From positions 1 through 64,000 of the IMG/VR virus record IMGVR_UViG_3300036900_000256: a DNA stretch of 64,000 nt; one strand, 5' to 3'. The translations under genes and the position numbers were made by a program. This document shows positions 20,351 to 26,951 of this stretch, in pieces (the stretch's first letter is position 1; each line of letters starts with the position of its first letter). Under the pieces are notes generated by a model. It made no database searches and had not been told where the DNA came from. It was given only the letters and a program-made list of their open reading frames with translations. Origin of the DNA: a virus.

Positions 20351-21148
20351 ATGCACGACAACGACGATCAGAACCTGCCGGTCCACCCGGTGTACGGGCC
20401 CGCGCTCGCCGTGCTGGACGGTGTCCCGGTGTGGCTGCAGTGCGGCGCGGCGGACGACGATGACGACGGCGCGGAGATCGACCTGACCGCCGCTGATGGC
20501 AAGCCAGCGGCAGTGAAGAAGCAGTCGGACATCCTCGACGACGAGCCGGACGAGGACGACGAGCCCGAGGACGAGTCGGACAAGGACGACAAGGCACCGC
20601 CCGCGAAGAAGCCCGCCGGGCAGGCACCGGCCCATACTGCGGAGGACTTCGAGCGCCTGGAGAAGGCGCTCACCGCCGAGCGGGCGATGCGCAAGAAGCG
20701 CGAGAGCATGATCGCCGAGTTCCGGAAGGCTGAGCGGGCGGCTGCCACGTCTGGCGACGATGCGGCTGCCCAGCAGGTGAGGGACGCGGCCGACGCCGCG
20801 GCGGCGAAGTACAAGCCGGTGGCGATTCGGTCGGCGGCGAAGGCGGCGCTGCTGGAGGCGAACTTCCAGAATCCGACTGACGAGCGCATCAAGAAGATGA
20901 TCAAGCGGCTCGACATCGACGACATCGACGTCGATGACGACGGCGACATCATCGGCCTGGAAGGGCAGATCGAGTCCCTGGTCGACGACTTCCCCGAGCT
21001 GTTCACCGCGCCCACCGCCGCCGCGCCGACCGTGCCCGCCAAGGTCAAGCCGCCGAAGATCAGCACGGCGAACAAGCCACCCGCCAAGGTCGAATACGCC
21101 ACGACCGGCGAGCGCCTGGCGGCCAAGATCACCGCTGGCGAGGAGTAG
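20351..21148 (+). CDS. Capsid scaffolding protein with N-terminal leader (DGVPVWLQCG)
   Basis: Acidic N-region, coiled coil (LEKALTAERAMRK), I..L..DFPELF; follows MuF. Confidence 0.8.
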   Translation: MHDNDDQNLPVHPVYGPALAVLDGVPVWLQCGAADDDDDGAEIDLTAADGKPAAVKKQSDILDDEPDEDDEPEDESDKDDKAPPAKKPAGQAPAHTAEDFERLEKALTAERAMRKKRESMIAEFRKAERAAATSGDDAAAQQVRDAADAAAAKYKPVAIRSAAKAALLEANFQNPTDERIKKMIKRLDIDDIDVDDDGDIIGLEGQIESLVDDFPELFTAPTAAAPTVPAKVKPPKISTANKPPAKVEYATTGERLAAKITAGEE

Positions 21149-21322
21149 CCGGTGGGCACATGGGTGGTCGACCCCTCAGCGTTGCTCGACACGGCGATGT
21201 TCCTCCTCGCGGTGGCGCTGTTCGGGGTGCTCGCGTCGATCCGCGCAAACCGGCGGCGGCGCCGGTGAGGCCGACATCAGCCCGATCCGAATCCCCAACC
21301 GCAGGAAGCTGAGGACACCACC

Positions 21323-22021
21323 ATGGGCGACACCAGCCCGTCCACCGTTGAAGACCAAGCCCCACCCAAGGACGAACTACACGGGGCTGTGATCCGCGAC
21401 CAGAACAATGTGCCGTCGCTGGTTTCGGACGGCGGCGAGATCATCGTCGGCACGCGGGCCGAGTTGCGCGCGGCGTTCGGGGGCTTGGTCGTCACCACCG
21501 CCCGCCTGCCCGACGACACCGAGCCGGTGCTGAGCATCCGAAAGTGGATGTCGCCGGACGAACTGGATCTCATCGTGCAGCGTCTCGACGACAAGACCGA
21601 GGGCACACCGTGGCCACCCGCACCGCTGGTGGCTGGCTTCGAACCCGAACTGGTGGAGCACGCCCGGCGTGAGCTGGCCCTGTTGGGCGAGAACGACGAG
21701 TGGTTCGTGGAGTCGATCGTCGCTGCGATGCGCGGGTTCCTCGGGTGCGGCCACTCCGGCGGCTCCGCACCGATCGCCATCGACTATCTGACGCGCCTGC
21801 TGTCGCGTGAAGCGTTGACCTCGCTCACCAACGACCCTGCCGAGTGGGTCGATCGTTCCGAGATGAGTGGCTACCCGCTGTGGCAGAACGCCCGTGACTC
21901 GCGCGCGATGTCTGAGGACGGCGGGAAGACGTACTGGATGGTCGACCAGGTGCCGGAGGGCGAGACGTCTGCATCGGCCACCCGGTACGTGTCCGCCGAG
22001 CCGGTCACCGGAGGCGTGTGA
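21323..22021 (+). CDS. Hypothetical protein
   Basis: GAGG RBS; HARREL..GHSGGSA..LT..P.EW..WQN.R.S..SEDGGKTY conserved-looking phage motif. Confidence 0.7.
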   Translation: MGDTSPSTVEDQAPPKDELHGAVIRDQNNVPSLVSDGGEIIVGTRAELRAAFGGLVVTTARLPDDTEPVLSIRKWMSPDELDLIVQRLDDKTEGTPWPPAPLVAGFEPELVEHARRELALLGENDEWFVESIVAAMRGFLGCGHSGGSAPIAIDYLTRLLSREALTSLTNDPAEWVDRSEMSGYPLWQNARDSRAMSEDGGKTYWMVDQVPEGETSASATRYVSAEPVTGGV

Positions 22022-23103
22022 TGCGCTGGCACACCACGGACTACCGGAAGCGGGACAAGCGCGAGGCGCGCGGAACCCTGATCAACCGGGGGTTCTGGTT
22101 GACGCTCCCTCGGCTGATGTTGCTGTGCCGAGTGTTCGGCCACAAGGCCGTGGTGGACGGTTACGACAACGCCCACGACGGCGGATCCCGGTGGGTCGCA
22201 TGCGACAGGTGCGGGGTGCGGCCAGACACGCAGGGCAGGCTCGACCCGAAGCTGTGGCAGCGTGGGCAGCGGTACAACGGCGAGCGCGCGGCGACACCGC
22301 TGGACCGGTCCGCGCTGAAGACGCTGAAACTGGGCGGCAAGGTTCCCCCGGAGCCGCCGTTCTACCTGCCCGGCCCGTGGCCACCTGCAACGACAGGTGT
22401 GATCGGCGGCCAGCTCATCATCGGCAAAACCCACGGCCTGTTCAACGTTGGCGTCGAACTCGGCCATGCGGGTGCCGACCACGTCCTGGCCGGGCACATC
22501 CAGATCAACCCGCTCGGCGCGCTATACCTCCACACCGAGGGGTTCGGCACCTGGTGGCAGCGGCGGCTCAACTCGGTCGGCTACGACTCCCGCGAAATCG
22601 GTCTGAGCGCCCACGACGGCAGCGTCTACTGGAAGCTTTGGGCGAAGGACGGCTCGTGGTCCAACACCGATCCGAAGTGGTGGCTGGGTTCGTTCCGGTA
22701 TGACCTGCGGGACATCGTTTTCGGCGACCTGAAGTACTCGTACGAGGACGTCGCCGGGCCGGTCACCGCTGTGGTGCGGATGCCGCACGGTGACGACCAC
22801 GTCGTGGTGCTGAGGTTGCGGCGCGAGACTCGCGCCCGGAAGCGTGGCCGCCCGAAGGAGCAGGGCTGGTCCGTCAACTGGAACTGCGACGACGGCATCC
22901 CGACCAAGGGGCTATACCGCGGCCGGGTGTGCGGGTCTGCTGTGAAGGTGACAGACGAGGCGGTAGAGAACCGCAGTTGGCCTTTCGCGGCCACCGCAGC
23001 GATCGCCGCGCGGCTGACGAGCGACCGCGTCCGCCACGGGTACCGGCACCCGGTCATCGTGCCCGTTGACGTGGACGACCCCGAGCCTGCCATGGAACTG
23101 TGA
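22018..23103 (+). CDS. Hypothetical protein
   Basis: Long coupled ORF; LCRVFGHK..CDRCG zinc-like motif. Confidence 0.7.
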   Translation: MMRWHTTDYRKRDKREARGTLINRGFWLTLPRLMLLCRVFGHKAVVDGYDNAHDGGSRWVACDRCGVRPDTQGRLDPKLWQRGQRYNGERAATPLDRSALKTLKLGGKVPPEPPFYLPGPWPPATTGVIGGQLIIGKTHGLFNVGVELGHAGADHVLAGHIQINPLGALYLHTEGFGTWWQRRLNSVGYDSREIGLSAHDGSVYWKLWAKDGSWSNTDPKWWLGSFRYDLRDIVFGDLKYSYEDVAGPVTAVVRMPHGDDHVVVLRLRRETRARKRGRPKEQGWSVNWNCDDGIPTKGLYRGRVCGSAVKVTDEAVENRSWPFAATAAIAARLTSDRVRHGYRHPVIVPVDVDDPEPAMEL

Positions 23104-23369
23104 TGACCACCGGCCACGCGAACGACGAAGACGACATCGAAGCGCGCAGGGGGGCAGCTCTTCAGCGCGCTCTCGACACTCCGATCCCAAGTGAGCTGAA
23201 GCAGCGGCTCGCAGACGAGATCGAACCCCACACGATGAACGCGGGCATCAAGCACGGCGAGGTGATGATCGCGGTCCAGATCGCCTATCCGCTGATCGTC
23301 GACATCGACGTCGAAGCCCTGCACATCGAATCTCTGGCCGCTGACCCCGAGCCCGAATTGGAGCTGTGA
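23100..23369 (+). CDS. Hypothetical protein
   Basis: Coupled ORF. Confidence 0.55.
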   Translation: MMTTGHANDEDDIEARRGAALQRALDTPIPSELKQRLADEIEPHTMNAGIKHGEVMIAVQIAYPLIVDIDVEALHIESLAADPEPELEL

Positions 23370-25674: not shown

Positions 25675-25787
25675 ATGGAGTTGATGATAGCCATCGTAGC
25701 CGGACGATCCTGCGCCCGGCGACACATCGACTGAAGGATCGTCGGCACAACCGGCCAAATGGCGTGTATTCTCCGCTCAAGTGGACA

Positions 25788-25893
25788 GCCCGTGATGGGC
25801 ATCCACCGCATCCGGTGATCGGAACCAGCAAGACCCTCCGACCCGCGTGCCCGTGATGGGGCGCAGGTGATTCCGCCTCCCCATCACGAAGGG
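25788..25893 (+). promoter_or_regulatory. Structured 5' leader of the capsid gene with repeated GUGAU-loop hairpins
   Basis: GCCC-GTGAT-GGGC, TCCG-GTGAT-CGGA, CCC-GTGAT-GGG; competing 10-bp stem 25852-25861 / 25879-25888 next to the RBS. Confidence 0.55.
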
Positions 25894-25901
25894 CCACACC
25901 C

Positions 25902-26951
25902 GTGGGCACCTCTCTGCTCGACACCCAGATTTTCGACGACTCCGTCCCCGAGCACGACACCGGCGACGTCCTGGGCCACAACCCCGACGGCTCCCCCATC
26001 CCACTGCAGGGTGGTTCCGCCCGAAACACGTACGAGGCGTGGATCTGGGAAGAGTTCGGCGCCGACGTCATCACCAAGGTCAAGCAGATGTCGGCCGTCG
26101 AGACGTACGCCCAGCGCGTCCCGATGAAGACCCAGACCCGGTCCACGCCGCGGTCCGGTGGTGTCGGCATCGAGATCATCGCCAAGGGTGGTGCCTACGG
26201 CGAGGACACCAACACCAACGACGACGTCATCCTCTCCGCGCAGAAGTTCGGCAAGGCCGTACGGATCGCCGAAGAGGACATCGACGACTCCCTCGCGGAC
26301 ATCCTCAACACGAAGCTGTCCGACTGGGCCACCGCCTACGCGAAGGGCCTCGACAACGCCTGCCTGGCGGTCACCGCGGCGAAGGCGACCACGGGCTGCA
26401 AGTTCGACTCCCTGTACTACCAGTTGTCGCAGACCAACACCCCCACCGGGTACACGGCGAACACGAACATCACGAAGTCCGGCAGCGCGGGCACCACCTA
26501 CGACGGCTTGTCCACCACGGCCGGGCTGGTGGAGACCGGGGACTTCTTCGACGAGGGCAGCGCGCTGTGGATCTGCCACCCCGCGTTCAAGAAGAAGCTG
26601 CGCGGCATCAAGGACACCGCCGGGCGCCCCATCTTCATGGAGTCCAGCAACGGCACCGCCGGTGGTGCGCAGAACGTCCCGGACACGATCATGGGCTACC
26701 CGGTCAAGTGGTCCCTCGGCGCGCGCACCAGCGCCACCCCGACCGCCACCCCGACCGGCAACCCGCTGGCGATCTTCTGCATCCCGCAGTTCCTGCTGCT
26801 GGGTGTCCGCTCCGGTCCCGAGTCGGTGTTCATCGACGGCCGCTCCGGTGTCAGCGCGCTGACCGACGAGTCGATCCTCAAGATGCGTGCCCGCCGCGGT
26901 TTCAACATCGGCATCGAGCACGCGTTCGCGGTCTACGAGGACAACAGCTGA
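25902..26951 (+). CDS. Major capsid protein (HK97 fold) with N-terminal leader ending LQGG
   Basis: W..EEFG.DVI, L.A.KFG....I.EEDIDDS, LRGIKD..GRPIF, IMGYPV, D...LKMRARRGF. Confidence 0.93.
   Translation: MGTSLLDTQIFDDSVPEHDTGDVLGHNPDGSPIPLQGGSARNTYEAWIWEEFGADVITKVKQMSAVETYAQRVPMKTQTRSTPRSGGVGIEIIAKGGAYGEDTNTNDDVILSAQKFGKAVRIAEEDIDDSLADILNTKLSDWATAYAKGLDNACLAVTAAKATTGCKFDSLYYQLSQTNTPTGYTANTNITKSGSAGTTYDGLSTTAGLVETGDFFDEGSALWICHPAFKKKLRGIKDTAGRPIFMESSNGTAGGAQNVPDTIMGYPVKWSLGARTSATPTATPTGNPLAIFCIPQFLLLGVRSGPESVFIDGRSGVSALTDESILKMRARRGFNIGIEHAFAVYEDNS

Follow-up and report, generated by a model that had tools for sequence, protein, structure and literature searches.

A Gly-Gly-ended leader common to scaffold and capsid proteins in an actinophage lineage, and a Mec-type JAMM peptidase that may remove it

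The window analysed here, the whole 64,000-nucleotide stretch at positions 1 to 64,000 of IMG/VR record IMGVR_UViG_3300036900_000256, belongs to a 74-kb viral record of high GC content and carries a head module in which the scaffolding protein and the major capsid protein begin with leaders of a common motif, while a gene for a stand-alone JAMM (JAB) metallopeptidase lies a short way upstream of the capsid gene (Table 1). At the DNA level the region has no match in the phage collection (megablast). The order of the late genes, which runs from TerL through portal, MuF-like protein and PF06810-type scaffold to an HK97-type capsid protein with no phage prohead protease, is that of the staphylococcal phage 80alpha, and the MuF-like gene stands directly 5' of the scaffold gene as it does in 80alpha-like and SPP1-like modules. 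An earlier note on this DNA had reported the absence of a recognisable prohead protease from the head module, and this holds: Pfam and PHROGs are blank for such an enzyme across the module, Pfam finds no protease domain in the MuF-like protein, and no S78 or ClpP-type protease is matched at E ≤ 0.1 anywhere in the 74-kb record, which is itself an estimated 72% complete. The same note had named the JAB gene as the last coding sequence before the capsid gene; the gene is intact and does occupy that position, but a tRNA-like gene on the minus strand intervenes.

Table 1. Genes and features in and around the head module, in positions of the window
Feature	Position	Strand	Basis or remark
TerL	15907-17535	+	late operon
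Portal	17644-19293	+	late operon
MuF-like minor head protein	19290-20342	+	PHROG head-morphogenesis and portal-fusion families
Scaffolding protein	20351-21148	+	PF06810, E 4e-12; PHROG head scaffolding families
Scaffold N-terminal leader, ending ...LDGVPVWLQCG(A), acidic run next	20351-20449	+	alignment with 38 other leader instances
Tad3-like protein, 232 residues	21323-22021	+	C-terminal half matches PF25185 (Tad3, type I Thoeris inhibitor), E 9.5e-30
Gene with no known family match	22018-23103	+	
Gene with no known family match	23100-23369	+	
DUF6221 gene	23366-24136	+	E 4e-15
Gene with no known family match	24124-24570	+	
Gene with no known family match	24573-25052	+	
Stand-alone Mec-like JAMM (JAB) metallopeptidase, 134 residues	25046-25450	+	PF14464, E 7e-25
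tRNA-like gene, insertion of ~70 nucleotides in the anticodon loop	25534-25672	-	Rfam tRNA, 29.6 bits, full model
HK97-fold major capsid protein, long form	25902-26951	+	PF05065 and PF25209; 1096 homologues
Capsid N-terminal leader, 38-39 residues, ending ...DGSPIPLQGG(S)	25902-26018	+	short-form homologues begin at the same junction

Both leaders lie exactly where the earlier note had placed them and have the peptides that it gave. When the scaffold is read from ATG 20351, residues D23-G32 are DGVPVWLQCG (20417-20446), and an ATGA-coupled start four codons 5' of this ATG is also possible. Translation of the capsid gene begins at GTG 25902, and because this is the only start codon in frame the leader must be translated; here residues D29-G38 are DGSPIPLQGG (25986-26015). 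In an AlphaFold2 model of the capsid protein (pTM 0.68) the leader is a low-confidence β-hairpin, formed by residues 22-26 and 32-35, that is unpacked on the HK97 fold.

We fetched 103 related loci and ran a strict regular expression for the leader core over 107 loci. The core, [ILV][ILV]G-x4-(D/N)G-x-P-[IV]-x4-G-G with Ala as the next residue of the consensus, is lineage-wide and heads most scaffolds and the longer of two capsid forms, with matches in 52 scaffold and 32 capsid open frames; the motif that had been claimed as common to the two N termini is thus real, conserved and far above chance. None of the other 21 matches is N-terminal, and most fall in frames that match no query protein, apparently non-coding frames of GC-rich DNA, with one in a relative of the 22018-23103 gene. 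The same search found the leader on no phage protein other than scaffold and capsid. Most loci have the core on their scaffold, among them ~40 with a short-form capsid protein (Streptomyces prophages and viral contigs), for example ISLPPGTILGYRADGRPIHVIAGG/AETDDE (the slash marks the junction here and below). Among the tails of 39 distinct leaders, 37 have GG and 24 have [AVIL]AGG, a pattern found 3 times in the 16,249 residues of the window's proteins.

The capsid homologues (n = 1096) fall into two forms of ~313 and ~350 residues, and comparison of the two locates the junction. The short form begins M-ARNT(Y/F)EAWIPEE, as in phage KimJongPhill, where the start has a strong ribosome-binding site and a stop codon upstream. 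The long form has a leader of 35-55 residues whose core ends exactly at the short-form start (GG/ARN against M-ARN), and the short-form capsids P0004, P0010 and P0021, which like P0028 are nested in the long-form clade, are 83-90% identical to the capsid of the window. A metagenome scan with P0028 added no locus to those compared. A corresponding loss is seen in the scaffolds of six loci (L024, L106, L090, L099, L084 and L009), which keep the MGI(H/Q) start and the acidic run and precisely lack the leader core; judged from their sequences these are natural leader deletions, and the capsid is of the short form in all six. The related loci thus present three states, with the leader on neither protein, on the scaffold only or on both, and in every case seen a leader on the capsid is accompanied by one on the scaffold. 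Going by the naturally occurring leaderless capsids, which start at the predicted junction, the leader is dispensable. With leaderless forms that begin at exactly this point, removal of the leader is the most economical reading. As for the position of the cut, the earlier note had placed it at GG/SARN; the junction region does match the leaderless starts, but the family alignment allows the boundary to be GGS/ARN, and the predicted mature capsid would start at S39 or at A40 (ARNTYEAW...).

The product of the JAB gene scores 87.6 bits against PF14464 (cut-off 25), with 112 of the 114 profile positions covered, and matches PDB entry 2KKS (E 9e-17). Its catalytic motif E...HSHx7SxxD is intact, and none of the residues E23, H79, H81, S89 and D92 varies among 15 phage homologues. 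The JAB of the window is 49-56% identical to JAB genes of the hosts, which can be identified as Mec because they adjoin genes for a CysO of 90-95 residues and a CysM of 316 residues; the context is weaker in the Streptomyces hosts L125, where the JAB frame is not among the called genes, and L126, which has no called CysO or CysM. In a tree the phage JABs have host Mec proteins interspersed among them, and by this kinship the JAB of the window is a Mec homologue and a putative Gly-Gly peptidase of the Mec type. A lambda gpK-type tail protein was considered and rejected: the PHROG 'tail' hits reflect the shared JAB domain only, and both an NlpC domain and a tail context are lacking.

The closeness to host Mec, which releases cysteine from the CysO-cysteine adduct in an established Mec-CysO-CysM pathway (PMC8280819), could mean that the phage copy is an auxiliary metabolic gene that boosts this cysteine pathway, either by freeing cysteine from CysO-Cys or by trimming a CysO precursor, and some host CysO proteins do need two residues past GG to be trimmed. 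The phage, however, has no cysO or cysM of its own, with no match to the ThiS/MoaD/CysO family in the 74-kb record at E ≤ 1, and the genes next to JAB differ between phages. The hosts already possess Mec, as seen in all 23 genomes tested, and a metabolic role leaves unexplained both the restriction of the gene to phages with a capsid leader and its repeated placement between scaffold and capsid genes (below). We consider such a role very improbable.

Mec-type JAMM zinc peptidases cleave the linear peptide bond after the Gly-Gly tail of CysO. Host CysO in four genomes ends ...LPAVAGG, with two extra residues after GG in three of the four (L122:4210-4488, L123:1124-1402 and L125:5259-5546, from Pseudonocardia and Streptomyces; AVAGG-MR and AVAGG-SV), and host Mec probably already trims the linear bond after the GG of such proteins. 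The common leader tail [AVIL]AGG equals this CysO tail, AVAGG.

Presence of JAB was scored by a PF14464 scan of whole records, and a phage JAB was found in 17 of the 23 records with a capsid leader against none of the 30 without. Among records with the capsid leader it is present in 12/16 viral records (the window included), in 4/5 prophages and, of the two cultured phages, in Dryad and not in PHTowN; among those with a leaderless capsid the counts are 0/11 for viral records, 0/18 for prophages and 0/1 for cultured phages (KimJongPhill). The gene lies between the scaffold and capsid genes in the window and in seven other loci (L005, L027, L045, L071, L074, L077 and L082), and in L071 it is the only gene there. 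Because the groupings in the JAB tree mirror the capsid clades, they suggest that the phage gene has been retained vertically over a long time. Every one of the 23 prophage host genomes tested encodes a Mec-like JAB, and therefore the host enzyme would be available to phages that carry none. A tendency for leader tails to be more divergent (GA, CG, AG) in JAB-positive phages is suggestive, small, phylogenetically structured and not clean, and was given no weight.

We propose, tentatively and at close to an even chance, that a Mec-type JAMM peptidase, encoded by the phage in this case and by the host elsewhere, removes the leaders by a cut after their Gly-Gly tail. A homologous N-terminal β-hairpin leader on scaffold and capsid, with a small-residue tail that is mostly [AVIL]-A-G-G, would be clipped during head assembly to leave a capsid protein starting at S39 or A40 and a scaffold starting at its acidic region. 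The cutter here would be the phage Mec copy, expressed with the late genes from a position just 5' of the capsid gene, and in JAB-less relatives it would be host Mec; the route would be the actinobacterial counterpart of that of 80alpha, in which host Prp cuts the leaders. What is observed is the motif with its distribution, the Mec homology of JAB and the co-occurrence; the cleavage, the identity of the enzyme and the exact site are what we infer from them. In its fullest form, with phage-borne Mec trimming CysO-tail-like leaders off all 415 capsid subunits as well as off the scaffold and with JAB-less relatives hijacking host Mec, the proposal is possible, if somewhat short of an even chance. 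As a new way of maturing a phage head it is plausible and unproven.

Several observations weigh against this proposal, the first of them on the side of the substrate. The leader tails of the window itself (LQGG-S and LQCG-A) are atypical of the family. JAMM enzymes usually also grip the folded β-grasp body of their substrate, and in the leaders, of 35-55 residues and modelled for the capsid of the window as a single hairpin, no such body was detected. The earlier note had called the leaders ubiquitin-like; PF02597 does not match them, Pfam is blank at E ≤ 10 for six leaders, and a profile of the whole leader, run against the PDB and five host genomes, retrieves no CysO and no ubiquitin-like protein, its matches in the host genomes being only prophage scaffolds and capsids and its return from the PDB being noise. 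Because neither the profile nor PF02597 retrieves such a protein, the resemblance to CysO is limited to the tail, the last few residues, and leaders that are themselves ubiquitin-like domains are ruled out at profile level (PDB, Pfam and host genomes). 'Ubiquitin-like tail mimic' appears a defensible label for the leader on these comparisons; 'ubiquitin-like leader' does not.

The profile search gave one further observation, a second significant match (G027:C87:33132-33188, minus strand, E 8e-6) in a Streptomyces genome, on a contig different from that of prophage locus L013, which may be another prophage scaffold or capsid.

On the side of the enzyme, a phage JAB is missing from ~50 relatives that bear the leader on their scaffold, and JAB-less phages account for most of the leader-bearing scaffolds. 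Among complete or near-complete genomes with leaders on both proteins, JAB is absent from G012 (100% complete, with terminal repeats), from G014 (97%) and from PHTowN, and seven more PHTowN-like phages, searched by tblastn only, gave no match. The gene is far from the head genes in G003, G008, G009 and Dryad, on the other strand in G003 and Dryad, and in the window it ends a variable island that also carries the Tad3-like gene. Moreover, the long capsid form consists of one main clade and a PHTowN/Dryad clade, so that the co-occurrence rests on about two independent clades. Because the ~50 phages with a leader on the scaffold, and complete genomes with one on the capsid, lack it, the phage JAB cannot be the general cutter; if a JAMM enzyme cuts the leader, host Mec must do so in most relatives. 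The co-occurrence that the earlier note had suggested looking for is therefore found for the capsid leader, outside of which no phage JAB was seen, but not for the scaffold leader. Its idea of deubiquitinase-type head maturation acting on ubiquitin-like tail mimics is likewise supported in part: the conserved leader, the Mec-type JAB and the [AVIL]AGG tails stand, but the leaders are not detectable as ubiquitin-like domains and the phage JAB cannot be the general cutter.

This distribution also invites a different account, in which JAB is an accessory enzyme directed at the host, for instance a counter-defence deubiquitinase against type II CBASS or Bil, that was inherited by chance in the capsid-leader clade while another protease handles the leaders; a counter-defence role of this kind was the alternative offered by the earlier note. 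Its place at the close of an island with an anti-Thoeris-like gene, its varying genome position and its absence from complete relatives would all suit such an enzyme, gaps of 0.13 to 7.6 kb mark the scaffold-capsid junction as a hot spot for insertions, and the co-occurrence could reflect shared ancestry. However, JAB is a relative of metabolic Mec at the level of an orthologue and matches none of the PADLOC models for defence-system JABs (CBASS Cap3, Bil deubiquitinase), the sole hit being a 13-bit one to E1-E2 (E 0.005), a result with which a counter-defence role is still compatible. Vertical retention over deep divergence, at 17/23 against 0/30 records, also speaks against this account, and the module (by Pfam and PHROGs) and the record (for S78 and ClpP) hold no other candidate protease. 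We regard the accessory role as unlikely, though a serious contender.

Published data on other actinophages bear on whether leaders of this kind are removed at all. In Patience, gp19, annotated as 'protease', is a Prok-JAB beside the MuF gene. The N-terminal peptides published for gp21 start at residue 35, after a glycine (PMC4324244), and the sequence at this point is ...RVLPIFGG/T35. The capsid protein (L121, 3661-4863) reads ...FPIFGG/T20, and the 2025 electron cryomicroscopy model of the capsid starts at Thr-20, right after PIFGG (PMC11965321); the 2014 proteomics paper puts the capsid cut between residues 82 and 83, in conflict with that start (PMC4324244). Patience, with its JAB 'protease', thus yields data that fit removal after PIFGG, the link between enzyme and substrate being a putative one there too. 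Adjutor (L127) has the same layout, with a JAB (gp11) in the head module, and its PF06810 scaffold gp15 (..FLAWLAATGLTLSGHDDD) and capsid gp17 (..FLEIIAVVGLSGHDN) share a leader GL(x)SGH-D (L127 3670-3849 and 4822-5001) that ends in SGH-D and not in GG; the electron cryomicroscopy model starts at Asn-28 (PMC11965321). The phages of this group (clusters U, H and D) resemble the window in having a Prok-JAB in the head module and a short leader common to the capsid and a neighbouring head protein. They differ in that the Patience JAB is only ~23% identical to that of the window, that in all the relatives listed their JAB lies near the left genome end, beside MuF or head genes where annotated, whereas here it is patchy and mobile, and that, with the exception of the glycine tail, their leaders show no relationship in sequence to those of the present lineage. 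GenBank already labels the JABs of the Patience/Adjutor group 'protease' or 'head maturation protease'; we came across no paper connecting them with leaders that end in glycine.

Were the leader instead retained, it could serve as a docking hairpin for the portal, MuF or another assembly partner, or in the timing of assembly, and JAB would be unrelated to it. Such a role would accord with the leader being modelled as a free hairpin and with the lack of JAB in most leader-bearing phages, and in 80alpha an N-terminal sequence of the scaffold is needed for assembly while its cutting is not (PMC5744158). Against retention stand the exact match of the junction to the start of leaderless capsids, the invariant small-residue tail, which resembles a cleavage site, and the Patience data, which fit removal at an analogous GG junction; an essential docking role is hard to square with scaffolds and capsids that have lost the motif in nature. 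An uncleaved leader is, in our judgement, decidedly doubtful.

The nearest precedent for the proposed removal of the leaders is 80alpha, in which host Prp cuts the leaders of scaffold and capsid and capsid cleavage is dispensable (PMC5744158). Beyond the gene order, the two systems have in common an N-terminal motif on both proteins and a capsid leader that can be done without, as pre-cleaved mutants of 80alpha are viable and leaderless capsids occur naturally in the present lineage. The motif here is a different and longer one, a hairpin of ~20 residues ending in GG. The enzymes differ as well: 80alpha relies on Prp, a cysteine protease with a link to ribosomal protein L27, and the candidate cutter in the present lineage is a zinc JAMM peptidase whose link is to CysO. 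Some of the phages here have a copy of the candidate enzyme of their own, and a search of five host genomes turned up no host protein with the whole leader motif that would be the equivalent of L27 in Firmicutes. With actinobacterial Mec (Rv1334-type) the phage JAB shares, besides its level of identity, a length of ~135 residues, the catalytic motif and, if the proposal is right, the preference for Gly-Gly tails; it differs in having no cysO or cysM neighbour and in that it would act on leaders without a β-grasp body, at the N termini of structural proteins. The canonical prohead proteases (HK97 gp4/S78, ClpP-like S14 or S49, T4 gp21) have the role proposed here, N-terminal trimming of head proteins in maturation. 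No gene of these types was found; in fold and in catalytic class the candidate stands apart from them, and what it would cut away is a short tag, not the scaffold or a delta domain.

If JAMM-dependent removal of the leaders is correct, a JAMM zinc isopeptidase would be the fourth catalytic class among capsid-maturation proteases and a new class of enzyme for the maturation of virus capsids, and the lineage would provide a second, independent case of phages borrowing a site-specific protease of the host by mimicry of its substrate's tail. It would also account for the unexplained post-glycine N termini published for Patience, and would supply a simple rule for annotating many actinophage head modules, namely a Gly-Gly leader common to scaffold and capsid. 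Cultured phages allow a direct test of the idea through the natural series of phages with no leader, with a leader on the scaffold only and with leaders on both, JAB being either present or absent in each case; PHTowN and Dryad are a cultured pair that differs in JAB.

The interval between the scaffold and capsid genes is of some interest in itself. The insert in the window is 4.1 kb long and holds seven genes, of which JAB is the last. In most relatives the scaffold gene adjoins the capsid gene, and across the loci compared (L004-L106) the gap, ~0.13 kb long in most of the Streptomyces prophages, reaches 7.4-7.6 kb in L005 and L027, with cargo that varies even between close relatives and an island content that differs between L004, L005 and L027. 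The minus-strand tRNA-like gene that separates JAB from the capsid gene is matched by Rfam as listed in Table 1, and ARAGORN returns nothing for it. The gene at the head of the island, placed inside the head operon, is an anti-defence candidate by its similarity to Tad3, and L005 and L004 have relatives of it in the corresponding position.

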